64,000 nt of DNA. It comes from Ginglymostoma cirratum. Lineage: Eukaryota. This document shows, one piece after another, positions 4,759 to 64,000 of this stretch. The notes under the pieces were generated by a model, which worked only from the letters and a program-made list of their open reading frames with translations, was not told where the DNA came from and did not search any database. The position numbers and the translations under genes are program-made. The stretch spans positions 26,128,256-26,192,255 of the forward strand of contig JAHRHZ010000267.1 in the NCBI GenBank assembly GCA_024137785.1, given 5' to 3'. Positions within the stretch are counted from its first letter, which is position 1; every line of letters begins with the position of its first letter.

Positions 4759-5259
4759 ATCTAATAGAACTGGTGCAGGCACAATGGGCCAAATAGTTTC
4801 CTTCCATGCTATAACAATTCTATGATCCTGTTAAAATGGGTGCTAACACTTTTACAATTACCTCTTTCCCACTGATGGAGGAGTTAAAGTTACTGTTAAA
4901 ATGGAAATTTTAGTACCTGAAATGCTTGTTCTCAAGCATGACTAAAATGTAAGCTTGTTGAATTATTTCATTATATAATTCTGGGATCCTAAGCCAGTTG
5001 ATGTTTGACTTTCAGAGGGTGTGCAGGACTCTAGGCTGATTTGATAGCCTACCTCAGACCTACTATCTCTGGGTCCAAGTTGCTGGCTTGAAAGAAATCT
5101 GCACTCTTTCTGTAAGAAGGAAAACTACTGGGCCCAGCTCACCAAGGAAAGTATTATTGGACACTGACCTCCTCAATGTTTGAATGCACAAGAACTGATT
5201 TTTAATACTGCTGGATTTAACAAAACTGTAATTTATAACCTGTCTCCTCTCCTGTCCTG

Positions 5260-5801
5260 AGATAATAGGAACTGCAGATGGTGGAGAATCCGAGATAACA
5301 AGGTGTAGAGCTGGATGAACACAGCAGGCCAAGCAGCANNNNNNNNNNNNNNNNNNNNNNNNNNNNNNNNNNNNNNNNNNNNNNNNNNNNNNNNNNNNNN
5401 NNNNNNNNNNNNNNNNNNNNNNNNNNNNNNNNNNNNNNNNNNNNNNNNNNNNNNNNNNNNNNNNNNNNNNNNNNNNNNNNNNNNNNNNNNNNNNNNNNNN
5501 NNNNNNNNNNNNNNNNNNNNNNNNNNNNNNNNNNNNNNNNNNNNNNNNNNNNNNNNNNNNNNNNNNNNNNNNNNNNNNNNNNNNNNNNNNNNNNNNNNNN
5601 NNNNNNNNNNNNNNNNNNNNNNNNNNNNNNNNNNNNNNNNNNNNNNNNNNNNNNNNNNNNNNNNNNNNNNNNNNNNNNNNNNNNNNNNNNNNNNNNNNNN
5701 NNNNNNNNNNNNNNNNNNNNNNNNNNNNNNNNNNNNNNAGAGCTTCCTGCTCCTATGATGCTGCTTGGCCTGCTGTGTTCATCCAGCTCTACACCTTGTT
5801 A
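5260..5801. mobile_element. Palindromic Penelope-terminus mini-element spanning a 400-N gap
   Basis: Inverted arms lie either side of the gap (5339-5738). Perfect 17-bp TSD tctcctctcctgtcctg at 5243-5259 and 5802-5818. Confidence 0.88.
5339..5738. other. Assembly gap (400 N); second gap at 38388-38397 (10 N)
   Basis: N runs. Confidence 1.
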
Positions 5802-7499
5802 TCTCCTCTCCTGTCCTGTCTTCTTTGATTTCCTGAGTGCGTTTTTGTGTGGATGGAGTAATGAAGCAATTCTCTGTATTTTGAATGCTTTGTTAATAAA
5901 CCCTTTCTTTGACTTAATCTTAAAGGTTTTTTGAAGCAAGTTTGTTTCAAGAATTGGAATTCAAAAACCAGGGCATGGGAAAGACCTTTTGGGTTACACC
6001 AGTAAGGATCAGAAGTAAAAAGAGAAAGCAGTAAATCAAACAGTACCAAGCTGTCTATGGCCTAAGGGGTGAAAAGCAATCGTAATTTAGTTCCACCACA
6101 TTGCTCCATTGTCCATGATAAATTGCACTTTTCAGACCTTGTTGAACAAATTGTCCTGAGATTGTCACTGTTAGTAGTGGAAAAACTCAGATTTCTAGAT
6201 GGAATTTATACTAATCATTGCATTGTAAATTTCTTCATCCTGACAGGCTTTTATCTCCTTCTATGTCACATTGAATGAAAATGGAAGGGACAGTGACTGA
6301 TGTATGAACCGTGTGCAACTTTGACATTAATGTTATTGTGCTTAGAAAAATTGTCACAAAAATTGATCAATAGACACCAGAATTCTTGCCAAAACAGAAG
6401 GATTGGTGGTGAGTGAGGAAATTCCTTTGTGGTGAAAATGCTTTTATAGCCTTTTGCAACTGTCAGTCTCTCCCATATTATTCCAAACAGTTACAGGCAG
6501 CCTGATGATTCAAATGACTTCTAAGAAACTGAAAGCCATGGAGCAGACATTGTGGAACTGATTCAGTTTCGGCCATTTATTGTTTGTCTTTTTCTATCAA
6601 GGCATGCAGTATCACTTTCTACAATAGACAAGCTGAGGTTAGTTTAAAAAAAACAAGTAAGCTGCTTGCCCTGAATTTAGGGTCCTGTACCAGAAAATCA
6701 CAAGGATGGGAAATGGACATTTTGAAGCAGAGTTAGATTGGATTGCCCCAAAACCCAAGATTGTGATGTACCATTATGCCCTGAGCATTGAAAATGATAG
6801 AGGCAATATGCTGCAGGTTAATTAAAATTACAGTGGCATACAGTCAGCACAGCTGAATAGGCAGCCCATGTTTCTGTGAAGTTTGAACAGGGCTGTCCAT
6901 CCATTTCACATGAGGGAACCCACATTTCACTTTTCAGTCATTTAGGAGGCGGTGAGCAAATTTCTGAAACATAAGGTTCGGCAGACAATCAACATGAATT
7001 TCAGGGAAAAAATAACTGTAAAGCAAAAGATTAAATAAATGACAAACTAATAAAAATGACCATTAACAGGTGCCAAGAAGTAAAGTTAATAAATAAAATC
7101 TTTTTTGGCTTTCGCCTTTTTAGTTAAGAGACAGGTAGAGAGAGACAGACTAGGAGCAAAGGCCTGATCACCAAGGAAGGGAAAGGGAAAGGGAAGGGGC
7201 CAAGTTAAGGGGAGGAGTTAGCTTTAACTATCACTGACATTGTGTTTGTCTTTGATGGTTCACATTTCAAGCTGCCCTTTTGCAAGTTCATACACAAATG
7301 GGGTTGGAGTGGATGACTTTCAGGCTGGGTTTTTCTCCTCTCGCAGCCTACTTTATAGATAGATTTTTTGAAGTGGGAAAAGGGGAAGTGATGTGTGTAT
7401 ATGACTCACATTATGTCTTAGGGTTCAGACACTCTGTCTTCCACATGTGTGAATGCATTCTCTCTGCCAGACTCTCTTTCACTGGCATAATGTCTCTCA

Positions 7500-7850: not shown

Positions 7851-7854
7851 GCAT

Positions 7855-8270: not shown

Positions 8271-9202
8271 TCTACCCTCACTCTCTTTCACTGACTTCCT
8301 TGTCCTTATACTCACTCATTCACACACACACACACACTCTCACTGATTCACTGAGCCTCACTCACTCATTGTCTCTGACTTGCTGACTCAGACTCACTCA
8401 CTCACTCACTCTTGCGGTCTCTCTCACTCACTTATTACTCCACGACAAACTAATATACTCCACTCCCCCATCTAGACTGCCACCTTGAGAGGGCCAGCAC
8501 CTGCATGAGTAGAGTTCCTCACCTCCCTCAAACTTCCTCCTGATAACAAGTTTCTTTCCCTCACATCCAGGCGGAAACTCAGAGTATCTTTCCCGTGCAC
8601 CTGCAAGCATCCCATCCTTTTCAGTCTATACTCTACCCTACCCCACCCACAGATTTACATTCACCTCCCCCTCACATGCTTAGCATTTTTGGAAATCTCT
8701 CATGTACACCTCAGATTTTGCACACATTGTCAATTAGTCATTTGTGGAAGACACGTTGTTTTGCACTCACTGGGCTGATGTTTCTCAAGTCTGTGTGGAT
8801 CTGACATTGTGCTGAGAGCCAGAAGCAGCACCACTTGAGACAACTGCGACACTGTCAGTGGAATTTTAAGTTGTCCTGCAACTAAATAATTGTCTGTGGC
8901 GCTCACACCCCTTTTATGGACAAGGATCTGTTTCCAAAATGCGACAATTATTTGGTGGGCTGAAAGCTCAGCTGTCTCAGCAGTGCCACTGAGAGCATTA
9001 ATGGGTGGTGGGTTTGATAGTATTGTGGTCTTTGCTACCATGGGCACCTCTGTGGGCCATAGAATGCCCAGTTAGGAGGATCCCCTTCCCAAGACATCAG
9101 GCAGGCTCACAGGGTTCACCAGGTAGTCTCTCTATATGATGAAGTAACCACTAACATCTGCTACAATGACAACTCTAGCAGAAGGAGGCCTTGATTATAT
9201 CA

Positions 9203-9332
9203 GAGATAGTAGGAACTGCCGATGCTGGAGAATCTGAGATAACAAGGTGTAGAGCTGGATGAACACAGCAGGCCCAGCAGCGTCAGAGGAGCAGGAAAGC
9301 TGCCGTTTCAGGTCTGGACCCTTCTTCAGAAA
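9203..9332 (-). mobile_element. Single-arm Penelope-terminus mini-element (130 bp)
   Basis: Same family as above. 11-bp TSD tgattatatca at 9192-9202 and 9333-9343. Degenerate hammerhead CTGAAGA...GAAACGGC on the minus strand. Confidence 0.88.
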
Positions 9333-10059
9333 TGATTATATCAATTGACATTTATTTCTGTTGTTTTTAATGGGAGGTGGGCATCTCAGAATTGGCCAGG
9401 TTTGGTGCTGATCCCATATTGCTCTTGAGGAGATGGTCCACTTTCTTGAACCACTGCAGGTACACACATCATTGTATAAATGAGGGAGTTCTAGGATTCT
9501 GACCTAGTGACAATGAAGAATTGATAACATAACTCTAAATTAGGATGGCTTGTGACTTGGAGGAAACTTTTAGCTGGTTGTGTTACCAAACATCTGCTGC
9601 CCTCATGCTAGGTGTTAGAGGTTTGGAAGGTGCCATGCAAGATTCAGAAACTTGCTGCAATGCATCTTCTGGATGGTACGCACTGTTGTCACTCTGTGTC
9701 AGTGAGTAAGGAAGTGAAAGTTTAGAGTGGTGATTGGGGTGTTTCTTAAGTGGACTGCTTTGTCCTGGATCATGTCATGTTATTGGAGCTGAGCTCACCC
9801 AGGCCAGTAAAGACCATTCCATCACACTCCTGAGTTATGCATTGTCAATGGCGGACAGGCATTAAGCAGTCTGGAGATAACTTATTTGCAACAGAATTTT
9901 CAACTTCTAACCTACTGTTGTCGCCTCTGTATTTTTATGTCTGATCCCAGTTAAGTTTGTGCTCAGTGGCAATCCTAGATATTTGACAATGCTAAGTCTA
10001 AAAGAGATGGTTAGATTCTTCCATTGGAGATGGTTATTTCTGGCACTTGTGTGGTGAAT

Positions 10060-10960: not shown

Positions 10961-10964
10961 GAAA

Positions 10965-26800: not shown

Positions 26801-28765
26801 AGTTACGTGAAAATTAAGGAAAAAATACTTCTATTTATGTACCAGCTAATGAGATTGAAATTGTGCAAAGTATTTCATATTAAATGAATGACTTGCGCAG
26901 TGAATACATTGATCCAGTGAAAATACCATTCCACATACAGCCATGGCTAGATCTGGTTTTAATGATGCTGATTGAATGTGGAATGTTTTGAACTGGAAAC
27001 TAAGATATAATGCTAATTATCTCTGAATTATATCATATGACCTTACTAGCAATCTGTATGGTCAAAGACCTCTAAGATGATAATTGTTCATTGAATGATG
27101 TAATTTTAAAACATTCTTACACCAAAAAAAAGCCTAGTCACTCCAATAATCAACCCATCCTCCAACTTGTTGTGCACAAGTTCTCTAAATGTTTTTACAT
27201 GTGATAAATTAGAGGTGTGTATGGGTTTCACAGCTGTAACATAGAGGCAACACAGCTTGTAATATTGATATCTAAGTAATCTGTAGTGTTAATGTAATCC
27301 AAGGTGAATGAAGGGTAACTCCAGTTCCTTCCTTCCAGTGCCAGGTCTTCCACTTCCATATACACAAATTCCGATTGCAGCTTTAACTCCATCTTCCCGC
27401 CTGTCTTCTGTAATTACTTCATCGATCAGAAACCTTCCTAACTCAGCATTGAAAATAACAAGTATCTTAATCTCTACTACTCCCTGAGGAATAAGTCCAA
27501 AAATTAACAAACCCCTGATAGAATAAATTCACAGAATCATTGAATTGTTACAGTGCAGGAGGCCAGTCGGCCCATCATGTCTGGTCTTCAAATGAGCATC
27601 ATTATCTAGTGCCAACTTCCTGCTTCTTCCCCAAACACTTGCACACTATTTCTACCCAAATAGTCATCCAGTGCCTTCTTGCATGTCTCAATTGAACTCA
27701 CCCCATCATTTCCTCTTTACTTCTGTCTTAAAAGGGAGACCCCTTATTTTGAAACAGCATCCCCGGTACTAGATTCTCTGAGCATTGGCATGTCAAACCT
27801 TTTGGAATCATCAATGTTTCAATAAGATCACCTCATCGGCTATACTGCCACATTACTGTCTATGACACGTTGACATCTATGCAATAGAGATAAACTGATT
27901 CATATCCTAGTAGGTATTGAACTTACTCCCAGCTATAGATCTGCCAAGTGGGTGGACATTGGAGGTTAGCATGGAACAAGTCAGAATTTGTTGTTGAAAT
28001 CAAATCAGTCTTTAATAATTCATCTATATGCTATCAAAGCATGACTAAGGCAGCAATTAAGCCATCAGAGATAAGCTTTTCACGGGGACAAGTGCTGCAG
28101 CAGTTTGTGTGGGCCAGCATTGCCTAACACTTAACTGTTATCAGTTTAAAAAAGCAAACACAACTAGGTAAGTGGGATCTGAATGAGGGAAAAATAAACC
28201 TGTTTTTCTCTGTTTGTTAGGTTCACAATTAACTTGCACAGCTTTCCAAACTAATATGTGTGCTAGATATGGACACTTCAAAGTAATTCTCAGTTTTCAA
28301 GCAAAGGTGAATATTAGCATTTTCATTTCAACAATGCATGCATTTGATCAAGTCACCATGTACCCAGCAGTTTAGAATAATTACAATAGGTACTCATGAA
28401 GTGAAAGTTCCAAATAATAATTTATCCTCTGTTTACTAATGGAGAACCACATTCGAAACAGGTGGTTTCCAAATAACCTCAGCCGCTGATGCTGTGGAAT
28501 CCACCCTGCATTTGTTAAGTGAACTGTACAACTGGTTGAAAATCACAGTGCATGACTTTCACTTTCTGTCTACTAAAATATCACAGAATTCCTACAGTGT
28601 GGAAACAGGCCATTCAGCCCAACAAGTCCACACTGTCTTTCTGAATAGCATCGCACCCAGACTCACCCCTTACCCTATCCCTGTAACCCTGCTTTTCCCA
28701 TGGCCAATCCACCTAACCTGCACATCTTAGGACTGTGGGAGGAAAGCCACACAGACATGAGGAGA

Positions 28766-28980
28766 CAATAGGTACTGCAGATGCTGGAGAATCCGAGATA
28801 GCAAAGTGTGGAGCTGGATGAACACAGCAGGCCAAGCAGCATCATAGGAGCAGGAAGGCTGATGTTTCAGGCCTAGACCCTTCATCAGAAAAAGACTTTT
28901 CTGATGAAGGGTCCAGGCCCGAAACGTCAAGCTTTCCTGCTCGGCCTGCTGTGTTCATCTAGCTCCACACCTTGTTATCT
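28766..28980. mobile_element. Palindromic Penelope-terminus mini-element (two inverted arms) inserted in a SINE
   Basis: The arms are reverse complements around aaaagactttt. TSD cagac(a/c)tgaggaga at 28752-28765 and 28981-28994. The arms match the 3' end of the 58722-61221 element. Confidence 0.9.
28901..28928 (+). ncRNA. Minimal hammerhead ribozyme core
   Basis: CTGATGA-a-gggt(ccag)gccc-GAAACGTC. Intact core, stem II, palindromic ACGT and GUC triplet; stem I is weak (ttt/aag). Confidence 0.6.
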
Positions 28981-31927
28981 CAGACCTGAGGAGAATGTGC
29001 AAACTCCACCCAGACAGTTGCCTGAGGCTGGAATTGAACTTGGGTCCATGGTGCTATGAGACAGCAGTACTAACTGCTGAGCCACGGTGCTGCCCTGATA
29101 TATTTAATGACTGTGAATATTATATTTCTGGTCTGTGCGACTGGGCTCAGTGCTCTGCATCATGTGGCATGAGAAAACAGTATTTAGCATTGGCAAAGGA
29201 AGTATTCCCATTTGAGGCTGGTAGTGTAGGGCATTGCCTGCAAAAATGACCATTTTGTGGAGGGTGGACCATCTTAAAAAGCATTAGTGCTGCTTCAGTT
29301 ACCTCATTGCATCTCGCAGAACTACAAACTACAATAAGTTATTTGAAGTTGTCTTTATCTATTAATCACTGAACTAGTCCATAATTCTGTCAGAAAGGTC
29401 CTGCTTTATGATATATATGCTTACCTCTTACAGCTGTTAAAATTGACAGGAGGCCAATGGCCATGGTTAGATACTTCTATCCATAAAAGGTGATGGACAC
29501 TGAGCAAACAAATCCACTTCAGATGAGATACTTTCAAAAAGCACAGATACTGATGGCTGAAGAGCCAATTCTTGACAGGCAGGTTTTGTCACAAGTGCTG
29601 AAAAGCTAATAATTTTCGTTGTGAGTTGGTGTTTTCAGCAATACCACCTGTTGCCAAGTTGCTGTAGTAACTGGTTAACATGGTGCATGCCAGCTCACAA
29701 GAGATGTAATCATTTTTCTCTGGGGTCAACCAGTGACTTCGAGGAGCAATAATCAATATCCAGTGTCTTCGCATTGCTTGAAAACATCTTGATGCAAAGT
29801 TATTAGTGTTCTCTTGGTTATCTGGCTCCAGTGACCTCACTACACGAAAAGTACTATTTTCACTATATTCACTTCTGTGTGTATTTGGCCAATCTTGAAA
29901 GCCTGCAACGTGACTGAGACAATGAAACTATCTCAGTTTGATAACTGCTAACAAATTTAGGAGCTCTGCTTTTGAGGGGACTGCTGCATTTGTGAGTTTG
30001 TCCTGACAGGAAAATTATTTTCATTCTCTCTACATCTCCCCACCCTTTCTCACCATTGTTAACACCACACAAGGATGGGAAAATTCTGCTCTGCTCTGAA
30101 ATGAACAGGCAGTTTGATTTAGGTCTTATTCATCAATAATCATCAAGATAATAGTGCTCAAAAATCCCTTTTCCAAAATTACCACCACATCTATAAAGGG
30201 CAAAGCAGCAGAGAGATGTAAATGTAAACAGAACTGAGTTACCTGGCATCATGGCTGATTGCCAAGGATTGGGGTTGCAGGTTGGCCCCTTCTCTACTAG
30301 AAATTATAGGCTGTCCTTCCTTTCATTTCTAACCAATGACTTTGCTGCATTAGTAGAAGGTGCAGCTCTTATTAAATTCAATGACAACTTATCAGCTCTA
30401 AAAAGCCTGGTTATGAGACAATGATTATTTAATTATAGGGACTAGAAGGCCAAGTTTCACTGAGTTAAATTAGAAATGATATTCTCTTGTTGCTACAGCA
30501 CTGGTATTGAATTGGCTCATTTCTCTCCACAGCATAGAAGTGAATATAGTGAAAATAATACACAATTTCCTGATCTACTTGGGGAAATTGAAACTCATGA
30601 TAGTACTAGTAAAAAGATGATTGTTGCAGACAGCCAAAGGATCTATTCAAAGAAATTAGTGCAGCACTGCATATTTGCCCACCCACAACTAACCCAAACC
30701 CCCACCCCAGCCCCCATCACTGTAGCCTCCTACAGTTTCTCAACAATTCCAAAACTTTTGCCTCCAGTACTCCATCTTGAACTTTATTTCAGCTGTTTTT
30801 GATGCCTGTGCGAAGAAGACTCTCCTGACATCCTAAAGTTATCTTCTATAGCTTGAACCAGTACATCTTTGTACTGTTTCTAAAACTTATTTTAAAATAA
30901 TGATTATAGAGCACTCTCCAAGGAGAGCAACTGCATGCACCTCATCCAGGAACCTTGGCATCCAGCATTTGTCGGTTTCACTGCATCATCATGGCACATC
31001 TCTAACACACTTCCAGTATGTTTTAATGTTGGACTTTGGAGCACACCAGCATTCTCATTATAATGCTGTTGCAAGAACACTTTGCATGCAGGGACAGGTA
31101 CCCAATCAATGGATTGGATCAGGCTGCATCTTAGGGCTCCTTACTCATTCACTTTGAGCCAACTTAGATGCTCAAGTTATCTCTGTCCTTGCCTTGCCAT
31201 TTTACAGTGTGTCCCCTCAGCCAGAGCTAACGGGCTCACAATACCTCTATCTTGTGTTGCCTTTTAGCGCAAACACAAAACTAGGCAGCTTGTTATGGTT
31301 GCCAGCAGTCATCAGTTAACAGGATGTACATGTTGCTCTGTGGCACTGTTATGTCAATCTGAAACCAGCACCCTATACCAGCCATGTATGGATCAAATGC
31401 ACCGTCTGTGCTTCAAGCAAATAGCCATGTATCAAAATCGAATGAGGGCAGTCTTCAGTTACATTTGGGGAGACACATCTCAGGAAGGGGTTCTTGGTAC
31501 AGTAATTCGATAACAGGTTCCAGTATCATTCTAGGGGCTTAGGCTGGTCACAGACAAGATTCTCTGCTTGGTGATGAGAAGACAAGTATTGTGATTCCCA
31601 CCATAGTCTTTCCAGGACTCTCTCTGACATACTGTGGGTTGTTTTCTCCTAGAATGAGAGAAAGGGAGAGACTGAGTAAGATGAAAGTGGATGGCACAGC
31701 TGTTGCTGCTGCAGTTTGGGGAAAGGTCATGAGGTGTCTCAAATGAATAACAGGGCAGCACAGAGGTCACGCAGGATTCGTAGCGTGGGGAGTTAGAATT
31801 GGAGAGAGCAAGTGAGGTAAAATGTTGCATGCAACAGTGAGAGCGGTTGAGTATGATCCTTTGAAGGGAGGTGGATGCAGTAGCAGTGATGGAGTGAGTG
31901 TGAGCTTGCAGAGAGAAAATGGTGGTA

Positions 31928-32164: not shown

Positions 32165-34364
32165 ATCCAGGCCCTATGTCACAAATCATACAGGACAGCT
32201 CCACAGTGACAGCACTTGACTAGGTGTACAATAGCCTTTTAAGCATGGTGCTAGTGCCAGGAATCCCAAGGAAGTCCCAGCAGTGTCAAGTACTTATACC
32301 TATGGTGAGAGGGAGAATTGAGCTAGCATCAGATAATTTGTGGTATACTAGTGGTGTGGTAGGTAGTTATGAGGTGAGTTTGGGATGATCACATGAGAAA
32401 ACATGCTAGGTCTCGTGGAGTAAAATCCTCCATGAAACGTTACAAAAATTACACAATCAATTTCTGATAAAATTCAGCCTAATGTAACTAATACTTCCTT
32501 TATCGACTGGATAATACAACATTCTATTAGTTCTGTTGATTGCTGTTCTTCATCTGAAAGACATATGTGGTGTTGAATCTGTAAGACTCCCTTGTCTCCT
32601 TCAACTCAATTTTCTAACAGTATCAGCTCCATTTATGGAATATGCATATCATTGTTTTTGTTTCCCACATATATTACTTTACATTTATCTGCAATAAATC
32701 TCATTCCTCACTGATGAGCCCACTTTCGTACTTGGTCTGATTCATACTGTAATTTCTTATCTGTGTCTCATTTCCTCTGCCCGATCCAGTTTGGTGTGAT
32801 TTGCAATTTGACCCTGCACATTAATTTTCTGAATCTAGATTGTTAATGTAAATTCATATGGTAATGATTCCCATAATGAGCCCCAAGGTATCCCATTGTC
32901 AAGCGAACCTCGCTCCCCCAACCCCTAACTCCCCCACCAACCCTTGTACAATTCATCAGATGAACACTTGTTGCTTTCTGCCCCGTGTCAGTTTCTTATT
33001 CCTTCCATGGTTTACTCTGAATTCCTGAAAGATTGAGTTTGGTTAGTAACCTATTACTTAAGTAGAACTTATTGGAAGTCTTTTGGAAGTGTATGTGCCC
33101 CATGTCCCAGTATTTGCTGTAGATCACTTTAGTTGTCACTCACCAAATTTGTTGAAGGTGACAGGATCTTGCCTTTCAGAATGAATTCTGAATATTTTTA
33201 GCTAGGTTAATCCTCTATGGATAATCATCAGGTTTGGAATGCTTTAAGACTAGTGTGTCTGCAGTTGGCTTCCTGGCTGCTCTACCCTGTCTGAAGCAGG
33301 CAGAAGGTTTGGCTCGATTGAGATTTGGAAAAATTGAATTTTTGATATAGCATTGTCAAATACTAAGAGATGCATATCTCTGAACTTTTAAATGTGAAAA
33401 ACTTTGAAAGTGTGTGGGAATATTAAATATTTAGGATTAACTGTAGTCAATCCTCGAGGATATATTTCTCACTCATAATGAGATGAATTATAAGATTTTG
33501 CATTCTTACACTGGATAATGTAGGACAGATTTTGAATTAAAATTTTTTAGTTTTTAAGTAAAATCATTTGAAAGGTTTTATTAAAAAGCAAACTTTCACA
33601 AAAAAAAGCATGATCTCTATTGTTGTGTCTAAGTTATTAAACACAACTGCTCGTTTTAGTCATGTTCCCAGGCGGTTTTCTATATGCTATCTACAGACTA
33701 GTGTTGCCTAGGTAAAATGTAAAGAACACACTCAACCATGAATATGAAACTAATCTGAACCGGTGTTGGATTAGCTAGTTCAACTTCACTATAGTTTTAA
33801 CAGAAAGATAGAACAAAGCCACACTGTGTTATGGACCCTCCATAATTATCATCTTTGTCACGAGTACAATGAACACCCTCTACCATTCCTGTCCTGAATC
33901 CAAAAAGAGTGCTGTACAAAATTTGGAAACTGATCAGTTTAATGCTTATAGAATGTAGTATAAAGCAATAACCATCTCTCTCACACAAGTTAGTGTTCTT
34001 GTTCAAACAATGACAATTACGGATGACCTCAATCTCACTATGTAAATTCACAGTAAGAGATCATGAGTGTGGACTGAACCTTCAACTTAACACTTCTTGG
34101 CAGTAATATATTTTACTATCAGCTGTAAAAGATCAGGTGAGTTTCATTTTTAATATCTATTGGCTTAATTATAAACGATACATAATCTAAACATGGTTTT
34201 AGTTTTTTTGGTATCTATTTCTCCACTCAAATATGGAAATATTTTTATTTTTGAAACATTTTATATATAGCACAACTAATATTAACTTTAATGTTCTCTG
34301 TGCATGGGTAGCGAGGGTTTTATCAAATTAGTTTGGCATTGTGGTGAAAGACTGCAGGCAAAAC

Positions 34365-34462
34365 ATTTCTGAAGAAGGGTCTAGGCCCGAAACGTCCGCC
34401 TTCCTGCTCCTCTGATGCTGCTTAGCCTGCTGTGTTCATCCAGCTCTACACCTTATTATCTC
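34365..34462 (+). mobile_element. Single-arm Penelope-terminus mini-element with hammerhead core (34369-34396)
   Basis: CTGAAGA-a-gggt(ctag)gccc-GAAACGTC...ccttattatctc, nearly identical to 61128-61221. No TSD seen. Confidence 0.82.
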
Positions 34463-37262: not shown

Positions 37263-38315
37263 AAACATTAGAAAGCTATCTTGTTGCGCACATTTCTCAT
37301 TCCATCAACGCTGGTGTATCCATTGTCCTGCACCCATTCTGCTCACTAATGGTAGCTACTGCAATTCGCTGGCAGGTCGCTCTGCCGTTGCAGTCAGAGC
37401 CGTTCTCTATGATAATATCTTTGCTTCACCATGACATTCAAATATCTCCTTCCCTTTCTTGGACATTTATTTTTAATACAAAGTGCTTTTGAAACATTGG
37501 CCAGAATCTTGAGGATACCACCCAAGGGGTTCTTGGTTGTTTACAGAGACTCAGGCATGTCCGCTTATTGTCTCTTACTAGGAAGATCTACCATGTCATA
37601 CAGCAGTCTGGAACGTTACAGGACAGTGGTGAGTTTTTCCCAGCAACAAGGACACCAAGACTGAAGGCCACATCCACTGAGAATTTCTAGCCAGTTGGAG
37701 CCTGGCAATGTTATTGAACAGCAGTGTCACTGGGGAGGCAGTGGCTCTTGCCGGTAAAACACCCACCCAAGGCCTACAAGTTCAGACAACAGGTTAGCAA
37801 TGACGTAAGGAAGTCACAGAATGGGGGTCGGGGAGAGGAGTCATTGGCAGTAAGGGCAGATTATGGTTCTCAGTGGGGCTTCCACCTTTCCTCTTGCCAG
37901 ATCTCCTGATCAGCCAGTGGGTGCCTTTGATCGAGGCACACTCTGGAAGCCCACAGGCAATCCTGCACAGTTTGTTTGTTGTACTCCATGTATACCAAAC
38001 CCTCATTAGCTCTGACTTAATACCAGCAGGGTGGAGTGAGGGTCTTAAGTGGGCATTAATCAGCTGTTTAAAGGCTGCAGTTTGTAGCAGAGCAGGAAGG
38101 CTGACCACAGTTTTAATGTGTGGAGATGCATCCTCACCTACCACCTCCTCGTCTTATTGAATGTCCTGTCCCACCATCAAATTAGTCACCAGAAGGGCAG
38201 AAGATTCCAGTGATCATTTTGGAAATGAAAAGTGTAAAACAATACAAGTTGTTGAAATAGTAATGTTACTATTTTAATGGTGAAATTATATTGAAGCAAT
38301 CATGTTCATTGCTGA

Positions 38316-38572
38316 GATAACAAGCATGGGGCTGGATGAACACAGCAGGTCAAGCAGCATCATAGGAGCAGGAAAACTTGACGTTTCNNNNNNNNNNCAT
38401 AGGAGCAGGAAAACTTGACGTTTCGGGCCTAAACCCTTCATCAGAAAAAATCGAAGGGTTTAGGCCTGAAACGTCAAGTTTTCCTGCTCCTATGATGCTG
38501 CTTGACCTGCTGTGTTCATCCAGCCCCATGCTTGTTATCTCGGATTCTCCAGCATCTGCAGTACCTTTTATC
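38316..38572. mobile_element. Palindromic Penelope-terminus mini-element
   Basis: Inverted arms around aaaaaatc. TSD tcatgttcat(t/a)gctga at 38300-38315 and 38573-38588. Contains a 10-N gap. Confidence 0.9.
38417..38444 (-). ncRNA. Minimal hammerhead ribozyme core, same sense as the klf5l pre-mRNA
   Basis: Minus strand reads CTGATGA-a-gggt(ttag)gccc-GAAACGTC. Confidence 0.6.
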
Positions 38573-40326
38573 TCATGTTCATAGCTGATTGCATTGAAAC
38601 TGTTTGCCACGTAAGCACAAATTCGGCATCTCTCAAAAGATTTCCTAGATTTTGATTTTCCTTTTACATTGATACTATTAACATACGCAAAAGCAATCAC
38701 TTCTTATTTGAGGATTAGGGAATTTATCCAAAGCTCTTATCAATTCCATTTTGTAATAGGAGATACGTGTTCAGTATGGGTTGTATAACTGACCCACCAT
38801 GAATTCTCTTCCTACCTATTCCTCTTACCCCCTCCAAGCTTTACCAGGCAACTGCAGCAGTTGCCCAATAACAGCAAAGTACTTCTGATTTTTTAAAGTT
38901 GAGAATCTAGCTTTCCACCAGTTGTTCAATCAAGATTCCATTAAATTGGAATGGTTGAATGGCAGCCCTTGTCTTGCACCTCCACAAATCATGTACTTAT
39001 GAAGCAAAACAAATAGAATGTGATCATTGATGCAAATAACAGTACAATAGCATAATAGAAACTGATGACTGTAATGCTAAACAATTTTCTAATTGCAGCA
39101 GGATCTGTTTGAACTCTGCATTCTTGCATATGTTGATTCTTTTGGGCAGGACCAAATCTAAGGGCAAAAGTATTGCAAAAAGAACAGGATTCAGCTTTTG
39201 TTTCTTGGGCCGTGCTTTATCAATGTGATTAAGAGCTGTTCACTGATTTCGAGAGAGGTTCTAGGCTTCGTTTGGTGCCCACAAAGTCGTTAGCAACTTC
39301 CCATTCACCTGGGAATTCTTTAGGTTAATTAGAGCTTTTAGCACCTTTTGATAGGTTTCCATAGATGTTGACTCTAACTGATAACACTAACTGCTCCGTG
39401 CAGATAGATGTAAAAATTTGTAGAAGAAAATATATGGAATTTGATCGTTACCTGTACAATTACTAGTTCCATAAGCAGTAAATTCATTCATTATTTAAAA
39501 GCAACATTAATATTTATGCGTCCAGAATGCCATTAATAATAATTCTATTTTTCCTTGAGTTATCACAAAAATGAGAAGTGCATTCTCAATTAAATGTGAT
39601 CAACCTTTTGCTCTGAATTTAACCTGCTAATATTGTGAAACAAAATTCAAAGCAAGGATGCAATATAATTTTTTTTCCAAACTTGTGCATGTACATTATC
39701 TTTAAAATGCTAAGTTTGCAACTTAAACTTTATGGCTATGGGCCAATAATAATGACAGCCAAAAATCCATGGAAGCTAAATTCCAGAGATCAAAATAATA
39801 TTCTGTGTTACAATGTACAGCTTCTATTTCATTAAAAATGGATATTATACCTGAAATTAATACCAGTCATAAAAATCTTTCAATGTATCAAATGTGTTTT
39901 GGCTTAATGTGCTATTTTCAGTATAATGCATATAACAGATTGTCTTAGCATCTGCATGTGCATGAAACCAATTTTGTACACTGCACATGTAGTACTACAG
40001 TGACTAGTCTTGCAGTGAGAGAATATATAAGCCATTGTTTATTGCTGGAAATAAAGCAACTCCTGTAAAAATATCGCCATGAAATGCATCTACATTTATG
40101 CACCCACCTCACAGAAACCCTATAAAAATGTAATAACACAGAAGAAATTAATTTGGTCCATCATGTCTGTGCTAGTCGACAAAGAGGTACTAAACCTAAT
40201 CCAAGATTCCTGCACTCAGTCTGCAACTCTATCAGAACTGGTTCATCAATTGGAAACCCACATGATTTTTAAGTGGGCTGAGAGTTTCTGTCTCCACCAC
40301 CCTTAGGGTGGCACAGTGGTTAGCAC

Positions 40327-40451
40327 ACACGCACGTTCCGAGGAAGGGTCACCAGACCTGAAATGTTAATGCGAATGATTTTCTCTTCACAGATGCTGCC
40401 AGACCTGTTGAGCTTTTCCAGCAACTTCTGGTTTTTGCTGTTATTGTTGAG
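40327..40451 (+). mobile_element. Second-family Penelope-terminus mini-element inserted in a SINE head
   Basis: ccgagga-agggtc(acca)gacct-gaaatgtt...agatgctgccagacctgttgagcttttccagcaacttc. Perfect 14-bp TSD acagtggttagcac at 40313-40326 and 40452-40465. Confidence 0.75.
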
Positions 40452-40599
40452 ACAGTGGTTAGCACTACTATCTCACAGCGCCAGGGACACACGTTCTTCA
40501 GAGGGTTGCTTTGGACTTGAAGACTTGAATGGCCTACTTCCACAGTTTAGGGATTCTATGATTCTTTCAGACAGTGACCTCTGCCATTCTTTCGGTGAA

Positions 40600-49500: not shown

Positions 49501-52238
49501 AGCCATAGTTTGGATTCAGGAATTTTTTAAATAGGTAAGTTGAAAAGATCATACTCAAGTGCTCCAGCCAATCCCCATGGCTGTTCATACACTCTGTGCA
49601 ACTCAATGTAACCTCATGCCTCCAGTCACTCACAATAGCTCCTCATTTTCTCTTATGCCAATTCATGCCCCTTTCCATGTCCAATAAGTACATAACTAAT
49701 GATCCACTTAATATGAATGGCAAATGTGGAACTTCTGAGAAAGAAGCACCGTGTAAAGAATGTCCTTGTAAAGTAAAAGCTGAGAGATGGTACCATTCAA
49801 TTATACAGTCTCCTGGCTTCACAAAAGTGCAGGGCTCAAAAGAAATAACTTGGAATCCACTGACATACATCAATGGGGAAGCTTCTGCTTGCTGGTCATG
49901 CCCAGAATATGGGAAGTTGCTAAAGTGTATCCACCCTGCAGCACTTGGTCTATGAGAAAAATTGAATGGAGCGATGAATCCTGAGGAGAAGTCCTACTCG
50001 CTGATTCCAAAACTGATGTTACCATTCGGTGTCACCACAGAGGATCGTTATGATCCATTTTCAAGCAGCAAGCTGGCAGGCGCAGTAGTGGTGACATCTG
50101 TTTTGCATTCTGAACAAGTTATGTTTCAGGAAAGAGTGATGGTGCTCCTCAAGCAGACTTCAGTTTGAAGAGTACATTGTTTGAGCACAGTTTTATGATT
50201 GCTTCGAGATAGTTGTTGCACAATGTAGATAGGAATAAAAGGATAACATGATGAGTAACTCGCATTGTCAACTCTGGTCATCTTGCAGTGTTCTGAAATC
50301 CTGGTAGTGAGTGAGTTGGCATCCAGCGCTAAGACCACCTCCATCTATACATCATGACTCTGGCCACTTAACCAGGGGTTGGTCTCTGCTCACTCCAATC
50401 TCCTGCAGGTTGAACTCCCTATGAGAACTTCATTGTGAAAATCCAATGAACAGTACAGAAGCTATTCTTGTGTGAATGGATAAATTAAAATGCTATAGAA
50501 ACACTGTAATCAGAATTAATATAGATTTTAAAATGAAAGAGAGAAGCGAGAACTTATGCTTTCCCCAATTTCAAGTCTAGTGCAGAAGAATGGTGTATGG
50601 AAATGAAACTTTTCATATGCTTTTGTTGGTTGCGCTTGTGTTCCACACCGATATCTATATTTCAGTTTCAGCAAATCAGCTCTTCAGAAAACTGGAGTGC
50701 AACTTTTTGTCATAGCAATTGATAAATACTGTGGCATAAACAAAGATGTGTTTACAGCATACATTAGATCCAGTAAATGTCAGGCCATTGTGTACTGTTG
50801 TCACAGTGACAGTCCTGTGTGCATCATGCATTTCTGTCTCAATGATGATCTTGTTCAAATCATATACTTTTGTCTCCCTTCTGTAGACAATGCATACTCT
50901 CCCTATGTGGAAAATCTGTCAACTTCCTCTCCTCATCACCCTAACCCCAACATGAGCAGTAATTTGTAATTCTGTGATGTGCTTTACATCAATCCACAAA
51001 GACATGCCCCTCCCCTGTTTCATTCAATGCGTAATGTGAAGGAACTTTAATAGCGTTCAACTAGCTTCCACAAAAATGGTGGGCTGAATCTTGGTTTTAA
51101 TTGGCTAATTGCGCGTTGATTTACATTTTTTGGAAGATTTGCATTTGAGACCTCGTGAGACTTCTTCCCAAACTTTCCTCATCAACATACTATAAGTGGA
51201 GAGGAGACAATGCAGTTTCTAGGAACTCTGAAGAAACATGTCAGATGACAATATCAACAAATGGTAGGTGTATGTGGTTGGAGTCGAATGAATAAGCCCT
51301 GACTGGCTGGACACTAGGCATCAACATGGAAGTGGTTTGAAGTAGACGGCAAGCTGAAATTGGCTTTGACTGCCATGTTGAGAGTTCTCGATGTCTCGCT
51401 TGTTTGACACGTTTGGTCAGATATGAACCTGAATTTTAATGAAGTAAGTTGAGCCAAGGTGTTTAACAAACTTTAAATTCCTTTAACAGGCTGTGTGTTG
51501 CTGCTTGCCTCGCTGTTTGGCAACTGCATAAAAGGTGCAACGAGATGTTTCTGATGTTGATAGGCCTTGCTGGAATTTTCACTTGATTCTGCCACGAACC
51601 TTGCCACAGCCCACATTGCTGAGACCTCTAAGATTCCATCCGAAGTAATCTTTTTAGAAATCTATACAGTTCAACATGAAAACTTGCTTGCTGGTGATAA
51701 ATCTGATGAGTGGTCACCTTATTTTTTTTTTATTTGGGATTCCGTGGCTGAGTATCTTCTACATAATTGCTAGAACTCTGCTGTAAGCTAGGTTTATTTT
51801 GTCCACGACAACTATTGAGCTTTGTTCAGAGTCCTAGAGGAATTGAATCATATTTCTTCAAAATTGAAGACCCTCAGTAAAAAAGGGGAAATGGAAAGAA
51901 TGCAAGAAAAAGAATCAAGTTTTGAGGCCTTCTAATTCCTCAAATTCTTTAATTTGAAAACTCGCCAGAATCAAGGACCTGGGAGACGCATTGTTAAAAC
52001 CATTACACTGACAATGAATTCAGTTATGAAGGTGTTCCATCTTTAACAGATTGTACAAGCAAATGCTAAGAATTGCCAGAACACCAAAGTATGTAATAGT
52101 TCAACTGTAGTTGCTTATATTTGTAGAAGTTGAACACAGTATAATGCTCAGTCCTGTAATGTGCTAGACTTGATCCATTTCTATGGTCACATCCTTAAAC
52201 AGTGAATTGTTCAATACGATCTATTACATCAACTGTAT

Positions 52239-52357
52239 TGCATCACATTAACTTTAATTTCTCTTCAAAGATGCTGCCAGACCTGCTGAGCTTTTCAAGC
52301 AACTTCCGGTTGTGTTTCTGATTTACAGCATCTGCAGTTCTTTCAGTTTTTATTTAG
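52239..52357 (+). mobile_element. Second-family mini-element (hammerhead part truncated), close to the exon 3 donor
   Basis: gatgctgccagacctgctgagcttttcaagcaacttcc...cagcatctgcagttct, similar to 40327-40451. Probable TSD catcaact(g/a)tat at 52227-52238 and 52358-52369. Confidence 0.7.
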
Positions 52358-52414
52358 CATCAACTATATGATTGTTTTAATGGCTTAAAGCAATATCCAA
52401 GGAAAACAGCATAC

Positions 52415-58170: not shown

Positions 58171-58721
58171 GAGGAGAGATATGTTAGGAAGCACTTCTAC
58201 TTACAAAGGGTGGTAGAGCTTTGTAACTCGCTTCCACAAATGGCAGTTAATGCTAGATCAGTTGTTAATTTTAAATCTGAGAAAGATACATTTTTATGAA
58301 GCAAAGATATTACATGGGCCAAAGGTAGCTATGTGGCGTTAGGCCACAAATCAGTAATGATCTCATTAAATGGTGGAACAAGATCAAGAAGCTAAATGAG
58401 CTACTCCTGTTCCTCTGTTCCAATAATTTACAAAATGAATGGATTTAAAGGTAGGTGTTTTTTGAGAGGAGTGATGATGGTAAATTTAAAAGAAGAGAGA
58501 ATTACTAAGAATATCAGCCAACATGGGGAGCCAGGAGGGAAAGTTGGATGGTCAGCACTGGGTTATGTGAAGGATTGCTCTTCAAGCATTCTTCTTTGGC
58601 TATAAAATGCATTAGAAAATCCTGCAATCACGAAAGATGTGATATAAATACAATGCGTTTTTCTTAGAGTTTACCACATACAGACAATAACTTGCTGTTA
58701 AACATTGTTTTGCCAGAAAGT

Positions 58722-61221
58722 CGAGGCAACTCCACCCACCGCCGACGCCGACACAATTCCACCCACAGCCGACGTCGCACGGCGCACCACCGACACCGAA
58801 GTCGCTCTGCCCATCGCCTCCACAGCCAGCAGCTCCAGAGGAGACAGTAGCACGCAGCCCTGCCAAGTCTTCACCATCCTCCCAGACCTCCTCCTTACCG
58901 AGGACGAACAGTCAGTCCTCAGTAAAGGGCTCACCTTTGTCCCCCTCCACCCACACATCAATGAATACCGGTCACGCTTGGACGTTGAAAAGTTTTTCCG
59001 CCGCCTCCGCCTCCACACTTACTTCTTTAACCATGAGCCTAACCCTCCCTCTAATGACCCGTTCTTCCACCTCCAATGCACATCCTCCTCCTGGACACCA
59101 CCCCAAGGCCTCCTACCCTCCCTCGACCTCTTCATCTCCAACTGCCGTCGAGACATCAATCACATCAACCTCTCCACCCCCCTCACCCACTCCAACCTCT
59201 CCCCCGCAGAACGTGCAGCCCTCCGCTCCCTCTGCTCCAATCCCAACCTCACCATAAAGCATACGGACAAGGGAGGCACAGTTGTAGTATGGCGCACTGA
59301 CCTCTACATTGCCGAGGCCAGACGCCAACTCTCCGACACCTCCTCCTACCGCCCCCTTGATCATGACCCCACCCCTGAACACCAAACCATCATCTCCCAA
59401 ACCATCCACAACCTCATCACCTCAGGTGACCTCCCACCCACAGCCTCCAACCTCATCGTTCCCCGACCCTGCACCGCCCACTTCTATTTCCTTCCCAAAA
59501 TCCACAAACCTGACTGCCCTGGTCGACCCATTGTCTCCGCCTGCTCCTGCCCCACCGAACTTATCTCCACCTATCTCGACTCCATTTTCTCCCCCTTGAT
59601 CCAGGAACTCCCTACCTATGTCCGTGACACCACCCATGCCCTCTACCTCCTCCAGAACTTCCAATTCCCTTGTCCCCAACACCTCATCTTTACCATGGAC
59701 GCCCAGTCCCTATACACCTGCATTCCCATACAGATGGCATAAAGTCCCTCCGCTTCTTCCTGTCCTGCAGGCCCGACCAGTCCCCCTCCACTGACACCCT
59801 CATCCGCTCAGCCAAACTCGTCCTCACCCTCAACAACTTCTCTTTCAATTCCTCCCACTTCCTACAGACAAAGGGGGTGGCCATGGATACCCGCATGGGC
59901 CCAAGCTCTGCCTGCCTCTTTGTAGGTTACGTGGAACAATCCCTCTTCCGTACCTACGCTGGCCCTAAACCCCACCTCTTCCTCCGTTACATTGATGACT
60001 GTGTTGGTGCCGCCTCGTGCTCCCACGAGGAGCTCGAACAGTTCAGCCACTTCCACCTTCCACCCCAACCTTAAGTTCACCTGGACCATCTGTAATACCT
60101 CTCTCTCCTTCCTGGTCCTCTCTGTCTCAATCTCTGGCAACCACTTAGAAACCGATATCCATTTCAAGCCCACCGACTCCCACAGCTACCAAGAATACAC
60201 CTCCTCCCACCCACCTTTCTGCAAAAATGCCATCTCCTATTCCCAATTCCTTCGCCTCTGCCGCATCTGCTCCCAGGATGAGGCATTCCACTCCTGTACA
60301 TCTCAGATGTCCTCGTTTTTCAAGGACGGCAATCTCCCCCCCTCAGTGGTCGAGAACGCCCTCGACCGGTTCTCCCGCATTTCCCGCAACTCATCCCTCA
60401 CATCCCCCTCCCCGCAATAACAACCAAAACAGAATCCCCCTCATCCTCACGTACCACCCCACCAACCTCTGGATCCAACGCATCATCCTCCGACACTTCC
60501 GCCATCTGCAATCCGACCCCAACACCAAAGACATTTTTCCCTCCCTACCCTTACCTGCTTTCCGGAGGGACCGCTCTCTCCGTGACTCCCTTGACCACTC
60601 CACACTCCCCTCCTGCCCCACCACACCCGGCACTTTGCCCTGCAACCGCAAGATGTGCTACACCTGCCCCTACACCTAGCCCTCGTCCCCATCCCCGGCC
60701 CCAAGATGACTTTCCACATCAAGCAGATGTTCATCTGCACATCTGCATGGGAACCCTGCAGCCCAATGGTATCAATGTGGACTTCACAAGCTTCAAAATC
60801 TCCCCTCCCCCTACCTCATCCCAAAACCAGCCCAGCTCATCCCCGCCTCCTTAACCTGTCCTTCCTCCCACTTATCCCCTCCTCTCACCTCAAGCCCCAC
60901 CCCCATCTCCTACCTACTAATCTTATCTCGCACCCCCCCTGACCTGTCCGTCCTCCCTGGACTGACCTATCTCCTCCCTACCTCCCCACCTATACTCACC
61001 TTTACTGGCTCCATCCCCGCCTCTTTGACCTGTCTGTCTCCTCTCCACCTATCTTCTCCTCTATCCATCTTCTATCCGCCTCCCCCTCTCTCCCTATTTG
61101 TTTCAGAACCCTCTTCCCCTCCCCCATTCTTGAAGAAGGGTCTAGGCCCGAAACGTTAGCCTTCCTGCTCCTCTGATGCTGCTTGGCCTGCTGTGTTCAT
61201 CCAGCTCTACCCCTTGTTATC
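58722..61221 (+). mobile_element. Penelope-like retroelement (Neptune-like), 5'-truncated, frameshifted, GIY-YIG domain deleted
   Basis: RT motifs LSKGLTFVP, DKGGTVVVW, FYFLPKIHKPDCPGRPIVS, TMDAQSLYTCIP, QTKGVAMDTRMGPS, LRYIDD; Cys linker PCNRKMCYTCP. 13-bp TSD TTTGCCAGAAAGT at 58709-58721 and 61222-61234. Confidence 0.92.
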
Positions 61222-64000
61222 TTTGCCAGAAAGTATTGTGTGTCTTCCAATAACTACCTGTTTTATAAACGTTTTCTCCTGCTGACTATCAGGGCATGTC
61301 AGTGAATCACTGAAGGGTTGCAAGAGATATGCCGTGACAAATGACTTAGTCCCATTCTCCCATATTTTTCCTATTGCATTTTTTCACATCAATTCCATTA
61401 CCTTTCAGGAAACCGTACTTTCAGGCAGTGCATTCCTGATCTTAACCCCTCACTGCTTAAAAAAAATTTTCCTCATGTCACTTTTGTACCTGGAATTAAG
61501 CTATCCCACTAATTTCCTCATACAGTCATTATACTTTTCTCCCACCAGCCCCCTAATTAAATTTACTGTAATTAATTATTTGGTCACAATATTTCAATAA
61601 ATATCTGGTAGTAATGCCGTCTCTGTAGAATATTCAGGTGATATTCATAAGGCATATGATATTTTCTCCATTGGCTTAATATCCTATCGTCCTCTGTGTG
61701 GCTGTTCCCTTTTGTTCACTCAGGTTCACTTTGTTTTTCTTCTTCTTGTAATTCTTATTGGATCAAGGTCATAGCTTTTGCATTCATCCCACAAAGTAAT
61801 AGAATAACTCAGAGACTGATTAAGTCTGGCAGGTCAAACATGACTGCTCCTCCTGTGATGAAAATCTTCCTCACATCAGCTGAAAGCATGTTTGTAATTT
61901 AACATGAAGAGACTTCATGTATGATGAAGTTCCATATGACAGGAACTACACCTCACAGCTAAGAGTATCCTATTGAATACTGACTCAGAATTTAAATGTG
62001 AAGCTCTTGTCACTGCCTTTCAAAAACTATTGACCAAATCGCAGTTCTCTTCAAAATAGACTGGAACGTCACCCTCTGTTATGGACTAGATCATAACTTT
62101 CCATTTGTTATAACTTGGGGCTTTGCAGAGAAAACAACAGCGAAACAAATAACTTTATTATCTCTCCTTAGTTCTGGACCACTTTCTTACTGCTTAATAT
62201 TTCCCGAATTGTAAGACATTGAGTGCAAACTTCAATCAAATCAAATCTCAGGCTAAGAATTCCAGACACAATTAACATTATTTATGTATTATTTATGTAA
62301 ATTACATTAGACTAAATTTATTCATTCTACACTGACATTTTGCACATGGCAAAATGGGGAGCAAAAATCTGTTGTGGATGTGCAGAATTCGAACTGTCCT
62401 TTCTGCATAATCACAGCAGTGCTCCCCTGGATTAGTAAAGCTTCAGAAAATAGATTGCATATCTGTTGAATTCAACAGTTCCCAAAGGCTCTAACTGTTA
62501 AACATATGTCACAGTGAAGTGCCCAGTTGATTCTTGTAGACTTTGTGAGACATTTACAAGAGAGAAATCTGATCAAATAATTTATTTTTCTCTTACTTTT
62601 ATCTACTCATGAAGGAAGCAATAAATGAGGAATTTATAAACTATCTATTGGTATCCTCCTAGAGTAGGAAAAATGAATGGATAATTGTGTTTTGATGAAG
62701 CCAACAATTACTGACTGTAGTTAAGAACATATCACTAAAAGCATTAAGTGCATAATGACGTAGCTTAACAACCAGACATCTGTTCGTAAACATGGTTTTT
62801 GCTGGTATGTAATGGAAAATAGCATAGGAACTGCAGAGATATGCACATACCATCAAACCTTTATCACTACTGATATATATATATTTACATTTTCAAGCAC
62901 TTAAAAGGTGCTTTTTAACAAAATTAAACTAATAATTTGAGCTGAACTGGCAATATTTAATGCCAGAACTTTTTGTATTCCTTATTAATGAATGTTCTTT
63001 ATTAGAATATGTCAAACATTATAAGTCGTGCTATTTTAGTATAGCCCCTCAAACTTAAACATATCACATTCAGTTCTCTCTCTCCTGCCTGTACACCCAT
63101 TGGTCTATATGCTAAGCATCATATAAATTATTGTTGGATCACAATATCACAGTCTGCAATTCCATGTTATATCATGCAAATCAATATCAATTTGCTAAAT
63201 TGGGTCTTTTTTGCATTGTAAACATTTTCTGAATGGATGTAATTAGAATTTAGATAGAAGGAAAATGTGAACTTACTTGACTTGGGGAAGATGTAGTTGT
63301 TTGTAGCAACTGCAGTAAATGTGATTTCAGTAGACCTGACGATTTAATGCTATCTTCTCCTAGAAATATATTGGCCTAGCCAGAAAAGAAAATTAAGAAT
63401 ACTTAACTCTGAAATGTCAGATTCTCTTTTTATTACAAATATTACAAAAGTTTTTGTCTGAGAGTTTTTCCTCCAACAAAAAACAGACTTACTGTGAGTT
63501 TTGTTTTGCAATCCAATCAGCATGACCTCTTTGGAGCCCATGAAAAAAAATAGGTTACTCCATTAACAATACTCTTAGGCAAGGAGGCAACTGAGATTCA
63601 GTGTGGAGATTCACCCTTTTCTAACTTTACATGTCAATCACGGTACCCACTATCTTCCCCCTTGTACTGTGTATCTCAGGTCAATAACATGGCAAAAGTA
63701 GGCAATTTGGCATTTCAATTCTACTGCATGATTCAATAATATCATGGCTAATCAGGTTGTGCTCTCAGCTTCATTTTACTGTTTGTCCTCCATAACCTTT
63801 GACTCCCTTGTCTATCAAAAATCTATCCAATTCAAACTTGAATAAGTTAATGACTCAATCTTCACTATCTTTTGAAGTAGAGAATTCCACACTTGAGACT
63901 CTCATGTATATCTTGAAAGGAGACCTCTTATTCCTAAACTTTGTCACCTATTTTTAATCTCCTCACAAAAATAACACAATGCTTTCGACATTTTGCTTTG

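Follow-up and report, generated by a model that had tools for sequence, protein, structure and literature searches.

Insertions left by Penelope-like elements (PLEs) that carry an endonuclease (EN+ PLEs) include inverted 5'-truncated copies with a tail of 30-40 bp at one end (PMC8557442, PMC3846280), and head-to-head inversions with the tail on one side have been described with target site duplications (TSDs) of 8-10 bp (PMC3846280). Here we explore a 64-kb stretch of the Ginglymostoma cirratum genome (assembly GCA_024137785.1, contig JAHRHZ010000267.1, positions 26,128,256 to 26,192,255, hereafter the window), which holds a long PLE of the Neptune type and five short, non-coding copies of its 3' terminus. 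The short copies are very probably PLE-made insertions. As to the complete course of events, we consider it somewhat probable that they are terminus-only, or pseudo-long-terminal-repeat-only (pLTR-only), insertions made from long-element transcripts by the ordinary reverse transcriptase (RT)/GIY-YIG machinery of a Neptune-type PLE. With truncated EN+ PLEs (PMC8557442, PMC3846280) they share 5' truncation, a head-to-head inverted terminus, a tail at one end, a long TSD of variable length and a linker zinc finger in the parent element, whereas the insert here consists of the terminus only (100-225 bp) and its 5' ends cluster at one point. As objects, such copies are of a known kind, PLE debris in a shark-like genome. 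No publication naming this shark terminus family was found in a search of the literature, with Dfam and Repbase outside its scope, so the family may well have been catalogued.

Minimal hammerhead ribozyme motifs of metazoan PLEs are mostly single and dispersed, with some pairs on opposite strands, and have been attributed to truncated PLEs (Cervera and de la Pena 2014, PMC4209133). Like the minimal type I motifs described there, those in the window lack a helix III loop and have palindromic positions 15.2-16.2, a bulged base before helix II and a G10.1-C11.1 pair. The stems differ, since Schistosoma PLE hammerheads are described with a helix I of 4-5 bp and a helix II of 7-8 bp, in contrast to 0-3 and 4 bp here; the helix I of the D. 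virilis variant has 2 bp. Moreover, the opposite-strand pairs of that study lie 100-700 bp apart, whereas the two motifs of one of our copies (copy 3) are separated by about a dozen bases.

Two further systems are close. In Poseidon of Anolis carolinensis (PAc; Frangieh et al. 2024, PMC11167929) the tail is bounded, as here, by two internal RT start sites, a hammerhead lies about 100 nt upstream of these, and both target strands are cut and extended. PAc belongs to a different clade and is reported to show no homology between target and template at the start site, in contrast to the overlaps of 1-4 nt at seven of eight junctions here. Animal non-LTR retrozymes (PMC7229834; Li et al. 2026, 10.64898/2026.07.22.740005) resemble our copies in that they originate from PLE termini, carry a type I hammerhead and are non-coding. 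They consist of units repeated head to tail, have two or more complete ribozymes and form circular RNA, whereas the tandem arrangement was not seen here. Dispersed 'monomer' derivatives of retrozymes have been described as well, in a sample with one chondrichthyan genome (Li et al. 2026).

Short insertions and their target site duplications

The window has 40% G+C and contains 410 N, and all copy counts, as well as the earlier description of the unit as high-copy, rest on this one 64-kb sequence. All five short copies align by BLASTN with 61125-61222, where the long element has its 3' terminus (E 1e-35 to 3e-13 when paired with that element), and an nhmmer profile retrieved ten arm pieces including that terminus itself (E 7e-44 to 4e-12). 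Copy 1 (5243..5818) is an inverted pair within an exact TSD of 17 bp (5243-5259 and 5802-5818), with a minus-strand left arm that carries a 33-nt tail (5259-5338) and a plus-strand right arm without tail (5743-5805); the 400 N between them (5339-5738) hide the size, the interior and the hammerheads of this copy. Copy 2 is a single minus-strand arm with tail (9203-9332, or 9192..9343 with its exact 11-bp TSDs at 9192-9202 and 9333-9343), the hammerhead core of which is broken at U16.1. Copy 3 (28752..28994) is a head-to-head hairpin with a 14-bp TSD with one mismatch (28752/28981); its left arm (28762-28893, minus) has the tail and a broken core, its right arm (28897-28981, plus) has no tail, an intact core and a 14-nt deletion. 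Copy 4 (34364..34462) is a single plus-strand arm without tail, with intact core boxes and without helix I, for which a TSD was looked for and none was found, the longest exact match having a length of 3. Copy 5 (38300..38588) is again a head-to-head hairpin, with a 16-bp TSD with one mismatch (38300/38573), a tail-less left arm with intact core (38314-38449, minus) and a tailed right arm that begins inside the first core box (38453-38574, plus). The left arm crosses a gap of 10 N (38388-38397) that carries a 27-nt duplicated overlap and represents an assembly seam. Both N gaps of the window hence lie inside inverted-arm copies.

TSD significance was evaluated with 1500 random boundary pairs, none of which gave an exact duplication of at least 11 bp or a one-mismatch duplication of at least 14 bp. 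Copy 3 provides a separate check: its host is a repeat resembling a short interspersed nuclear element (SINE), and because the 14-bp target occurs once in two uninterrupted paralogs of that repeat, the duplication was made by the insertion. By self-comparison, the host family is present at 19798-20105, 28580-29091 and 57191-57356. With the TSDs of four of the five short copies far above chance, these are real, separate insertions. An earlier reading based on the letters of the window only (the sequence-only reading) had described five non-coding copies matching a Neptune-like 3' end, four of them with their own TSDs of 11-17 bp. BLASTN and nhmmer bear out the former, and the latter holds with duplications of 17, 11, 14 and 16 bp against zero in the random pairs. 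The copy boundaries stood in part, since all five copies were found, whereas the size and hammerhead of copy 1 are concealed and copy 5 spans a seam.

The long Neptune-type element

The long element (58722-61221, plus strand; 58709..61234 with its exact 13-bp TSDs, 58709/61222) is a 5'-truncated, dead PLE of the Neptune type. Its RT is found in pieces over three frameshifts. A Pfam search of the six reading frames revealed no RT or endonuclease family at E 0.1, and the identity was taken from a homologue search instead. The best match of RT fragment 58723-59739 is an uncharacterised protein of Chiloscyllium punctatum (76% identity over 89% of the query), and the other 119 listed matches are RT proteins with 34-56% identity, several of which have a GIY-YIG domain (PF01541). 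A linker zinc finger at 60626-60673 (plus), followed by an in-frame stop, aligns with the linker finger of homologues P0002 and P0017. A motif resembling a zinc finger in the stretch that links RT to endonuclease (EN) is described as common to Neptune and Nematis (PMC8557442), and since only Neptune and Poseidon PLEs are reported from vertebrates (Li et al. 2026), Neptune is preferred over Nematis.

Downstream, about 85 codons of the GIY-YIG endonuclease are absent before 60747, and the 109 residues of P0017 that run from the linker finger to the C-terminal motif are reduced to 73 nt. The 3' part consists of a pyrimidine-rich region and the terminus without tail, and there is no 5' repeat. This copy reveals what kind of element the arms stem from; it cannot be the source of the enzyme, because it has lost endonuclease codons and contains frameshifts and a stop.

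Ends, tails and junctions of the arms

All eight arm ends, as well as the end of the long element, coincide with one of two fixed points, 94 or 127 nt from C3 of the hammerhead and 33 nt apart, both situated in a TATCTC-like motif. Copies 1, 3 and 5 are head-to-head inverted pairs, and in all three the 33-nt extension that forms the tail occurs on one arm only; it is present in single-arm copy 2 and absent from copy 4 and the long element. This two-end anatomy with its one-sided tail is a feature beyond the sequence-only reading. By analogy with the anole PLE, the two observed ends may correspond to RT start sites. The four fully visible copies show four different structures, with two different hairpin junctions. 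A direct head-to-tail tandem of the arm was searched for by self-BLAST and profile search, and none was detected in the window.

Junction overlaps were read manually from the boundary alignments and then tested. At seven of the eight scorable junctions (copies 1, 2, 3 and 5 and the long element), 1-4 nt of the TSD coincide with the element end, in total 15 nt where 4.2 would be expected (P ~6e-4 under a simple geometric null), which suggests either priming by short pairing or a cut preference that resembles the element end. The PLE-type RT upstream of the terminus, the tail of 30-40 bp at one end, the inverted 5'-truncated copies and the variable TSDs are hallmarks of EN+ PLE insertion, and the proposal that Penelope machinery made these insertions is supported.

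The left arm of copy 3 contains an open frame of 41 codons (28763-28885, minus) that begins at an ATG inside the hammerhead box and crosses arm and tail. In PAc the open reading frame (ORF) is reported to start within its ribozyme (PMC11167929). An ORF that begins at the core ATG and continues through arm and tail was considered and found unsupported: one search gave a single match among four candidates and another gave ten among 1.84 billion representatives, none of the size of an RT. Nine of these ten look like gene models that contain the repeat, and the match to P0130 is weak and unrelated.

The 5' boundary

Five of the six visible arms, representing four independent insertions, begin 3-6 nt 5' of C3 and the CTGANGA box, whereas the sixth, the right arm of copy 5, begins inside it; the earlier statement that arms start at or just before the hammerhead core is correct for the former and fails for the latter. 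Elsewhere in the window no family copy reaches into 58722-61124, the only other match to that stretch has E 0.67, and no intermediate lengths were found. A search aimed at the upstream reach of arms in other genomes gave none of six candidates. One of the two arms of a second terminus family (see below) starts at the same landmark, within an exact 14-bp TSD. The chance that four ends fall into one 4-nt window is, by a rough and post hoc estimate, 5e-4 to 2e-6 if lengths are smoothly distributed at a density between 1/50 and 1/300 per nt. Gene models P0121, P0122, P0123 and P0126, judged from their protein letters only, appear to be arms that begin near the same place, and in P0121 and P0126 the arm would directly follow an antisense arm. 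Within this window the sharp 5' boundary is a real feature; it may originate from a transcript start or from a stop of reverse transcription before the C-rich tract. No statement of such a boundary in short PLE copies was found in the PLE literature consulted.

The region 60800-61125 of the long element is a pyrimidine-rich tract, with 76-88% C+T up to 61099, that ends in a splice-acceptor-like TTTCAG (61102-61107), 22 nt before the hammerhead. In the D. virilis PLE an intron is reported to end at the ribozyme (PMC4209133).

The hammerhead motif

The minimal type I hammerhead motif of the long element (61130..61157, plus, predicted cleavage after 61157) has a first box with C3 changed to T, a bulged A, a 4-bp helix II with 4-nt loop and GAAAC-GT-H, without loop III. 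The arm motif comprises CUGANGA, a bulged base after A9, a G10.1-C11.1 helix II, GAAA, palindromic 15.2-16.2 and UH, again without loop III. These features match the minimal type I PLE hammerhead proposed by the sequence-only reading. However, both core boxes are intact in only three of the seven visible motifs (copy 4, copy 3-right and copy 5-left), helix I has 0-3 contiguous bp in the arms, and an Rfam scan of the whole window at E<=5 gave three matches, none of which to a hammerhead family. One of these, a mir-1303 match at 38402-38488 with 39.5 bits against a cut-off of 107, was rejected, as it corresponds to the palindrome of copy 5.

Helix II is paired in every motif position compared, without any compensatory change, and its probability ranges from 0.001 to 0.005 in single arms, compared with 0.32 in a different PLE motif of the window. 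None of four single arms folded better than its shuffles (z -0.48 to 1.5), and a dimer of copy 3-right did not take up the hammerhead dimer as its minimum-energy fold. Hairpins enclose the two best motifs, and in that of copy 3 (-151 kcal/mol, helix II probability 0.0) the paired ribozymes are on opposite strands and buried. Changes amount to 3/78 in the core and 32/419 elsewhere, numbers that are too small to call, with subfamily differences included in the latter.

The predicted cleavage site lies about 30 nt inside the arms, which end 66 or 99 nt downstream of it. With about 30 nt of arm upstream of the site, self-cleavage did not make the 5' ends. The hammerhead would hence be a passenger, and its predicted cleavage does not appear to define the insert. 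In the anole PLE, hammerhead cleavage is described as dispensable, hammerhead mutants inserting normally in vitro (PMC11167929).

Relationships among the arms

Between copy 4 and the long element's terminus 6 of 93 sites differ, against 10-13 between copy 4 and the other short arms. Diagnostic bases group the long element with copies 2 and 4, and copies 3 and 5 share others, so that at least two subfamilies are represented among the short arms, and these do not make up a group of their own that excludes the long element. The two arms of copy 5 differ from each other at one of 88 sites and from all other arms by 10-15 differences, with many changes found in no other arm. This identity (38314-38574) could reflect one divergent source, conversion in the palindrome or assembly collapse at the N seam. 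The arms of copy 3 differ at about 10 of 80 sites, a count inflated by gap placement. When examined for masters of their own, the four visible copies showed four structures with the long element nested among the arms, in a small sample that would be compatible with several masters. Given the differing structures and junctions of the copies, and with copy 4 closest to the long element, there is no evident sign of a separate master family. The separate non-autonomous family moved in trans that had been proposed earlier is, on the same grounds, not supported.

Origin of the insertions

As by-products of ordinary Neptune-type retrotransposition, the insertions would arise in four steps. To judge from the TSDs, the endonuclease would cut the two strands 11-17 nt apart. 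Reverse transcription would then be primed by the cut 3' ends at an internal position of the RNA, at either of two sites separated by 33 nt, both of which finish in ...TATCTC; pairing over 1-4 nt with this motif would often help. In an element with a partial tandem, the 5' pLTR would hold the sole start site that is followed by ORF sequence for recognition, and as a result only about 100-130 nt would be copied before run-off at the transcript start or a stop at the hammerhead foot. Finally, one primed end would give a single arm, whereas two primed ends, or snap-back of the cDNA, would result in a head-to-head hairpin that bears the tail on one side. PLE transcripts are described as beginning in the upstream pLTR (PMC6765202, PMC2377424), and the template of the anole PLE spans the pLTR-ORF junction, has to include the first 172 nt of the ORF and has to reach about 55 nt past the RT start site (PMC11167929). 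The meaning given to the two ends and the need for downstream sequence are borrowed from that other PLE clade, and we infer which RNA served as template, what causes the 5' boundary and how the hairpins arose. With such by-products, no separate family is needed to explain how long the arms are, why they have two ends, why their structures vary and how they fall into subfamilies.

Several points weigh against this origin. The 5' end is visible in no more than four independent short insertions, one of six arms starts elsewhere, and in the second terminus family of the window (see below) one of two arms starts away from the hammerhead-box landmark. The initiator-like heptamer at 61126 is one of three in 413 nt and was noticed after the fact. 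The transcript of the D. virilis PLE is reported to start about 120 nt upstream of the ribozyme (PMC2377424, PMC4209133), and therefore a stop of reverse transcription is equally open as the cause of the boundary. The window has no full-length or tandem member of the family that would show the link from tail to ORF. The ten proteins matched by the arm peptide have 80-292 aa, none being RT-sized, and an arm-like peptide is present in the first 150 residues of none of 120 RT homologues, most of which are about 50% identical or less. Lastly, the in vitro data come from an element of the Poseidon clade, not Neptune, for which no homology between target and start site is described (PMC11167929).

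The alternative that survives best, itself rather unlikely, is a SINE-like non-autonomous family, in which solo arms would contain an internal promoter, their transcripts would begin immediately before the hammerhead, and Neptune RT/EN would copy them in trans. It would agree with the sharp 5' start, with five short copies against one long one in the window and with the initiator-like heptamer at the arm start; pLTRs alone are reported to mobilise host DNA in trans (PMC3846280), and non-autonomous PLE derivatives with 3' similarity are known, as MRC1 (PMC8557442). The near-identity of the copy 5 arms, with their distance from all others, also fits, yet follows as well from one source locus, palindrome conversion or assembly collapse. 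Against such a family, the copies have neither a private flank nor a junction or structure in common, the long element is the closest match of copy 4, and tail-less copies could not have founded tailed ones. The arms would further lack the downstream recognition sequence, because by analogy with the anole PLE (PMC11167929) they end at sites equivalent to its RT starts. An extended version is as doubtful: the stretch of about 130 nt from hammerhead foot to tail might be a self-contained unit with internal promoter and RT start sites, a PLE-dependent SINE in sharks without self-cleavage, in which the hammerhead-shaped sequence would mark the transcript start, a dimeric enzyme priming both target ends would make the hairpins, and the second family would be an independent case.

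It is quite unlikely that the copies are solo pLTRs, left as one arm or an inverted pair within the original TSD after pLTR-ORF-pLTR insertions collapsed by direct-repeat recombination. Solo LTRs show the same end product with intact TSDs (PMC8969392) and solo pLTRs inside TSDs have been mentioned (PMC3846280), but recombination between repeats of about 100 bp would be required in nearly every copy, the sole long copy here has no 5' repeat, and the fixed 5' start is not itself explained.

Antisense self-priming, with synthesis from the palindromic junction and outer ends set by endonuclease cuts at the tail sites, has been proposed for head-to-head PLE inversions (PMC3846280 Discussion, PMC8557442). 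The near-perfect palindrome of copy 3 with its 4-nt loop, and T-runs of 4-6 nt at the junction-side starts of the hairpin arms, would suit it. We regard it as very unlikely, given that it does not simply account for single arms with the same start (copies 2 and 4), that tail ends have been described in vitro as RT start sites on a sense template (PMC11167929) and that the copy 3 arms differ as noted above.

Random 5' truncation, with the clustering as a small-sample effect, is highly improbable: PLEs are heavily 5'-truncated (PMC8557442, PMC8969392), the independent events number only four and two arms start elsewhere, but the post hoc probability given above, the lack of intermediate lengths and the similar starts of the four gene models speak against it. 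The sequence-only reading is right in that truncation looks non-random, the starts being clustered without a smooth spread.

A non-LTR retrozyme, as that reading had suggested, with RNA cut by two hammerheads, circularised and reinserted, has in common with our copies the type I motif, a kinship with PLEs and TSDs that are long (PMC7229834; Li et al. 2026), and is hardly credible given the absence of tandem units in the window, ends about 30 nt off the cleavage site, a minimal rather than canonical motif, mostly broken cores and paired motifs on opposite strands of the -151 kcal/mol hairpin.

Other PLE sequences and surroundings

A second, diverged PLE terminus family is represented by two plus-strand arms. 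The first, a short arm at 40327-40451 (40313..40465 with TSDs), begins at a degenerate hammerhead box and has an exact 14-bp TSD at 40313 and 40452, inside a SINE-like head. The other, at about 52245-52357 (52227..52369), begins inside the hammerhead region and has a tail-like end; its TSD is uncertain, with an 11/12 match that is offset from the arm start. A third, decayed PLE on the plus strand at about 35500-37265 is about 30% identical to Neptune-type RT, and a search for a TSD of at least 10 bp around it was negative. Its hammerhead (37151-37197) is better formed, with a helix I of at least 4 bp and a helix II of 6-7 bp, the second box having decayed at a CpG.

Further interspersed repeat families were seen by self-comparison at 659-1048, 20470-20976 and 45503-46058, and also at 11028-11293, 12210-12675 and 13975-14188. 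A long exon at 53795-54706 (minus) resembles a Kruppel-like factor gene, for which a KLF5-like identity is a lead.

Implications

Inverted-arm hairpins of this kind break assemblies, as both N gaps of the window illustrate, and leak into gene models, and hammerhead-motif counts in such genomes largely count dead termini. The value of the short copies is that they are a natural read-out of a poorly understood PLE mechanism. The points of most note for a genome-wide view are the 5' boundary and the junction overlaps. If the boundary, the one-sided tail and the overlaps of 1-4 nt hold genome-wide, these copies could be used to test where PLE transcripts start, whether priming takes place at two ends, and why full-length PLEs are rare.

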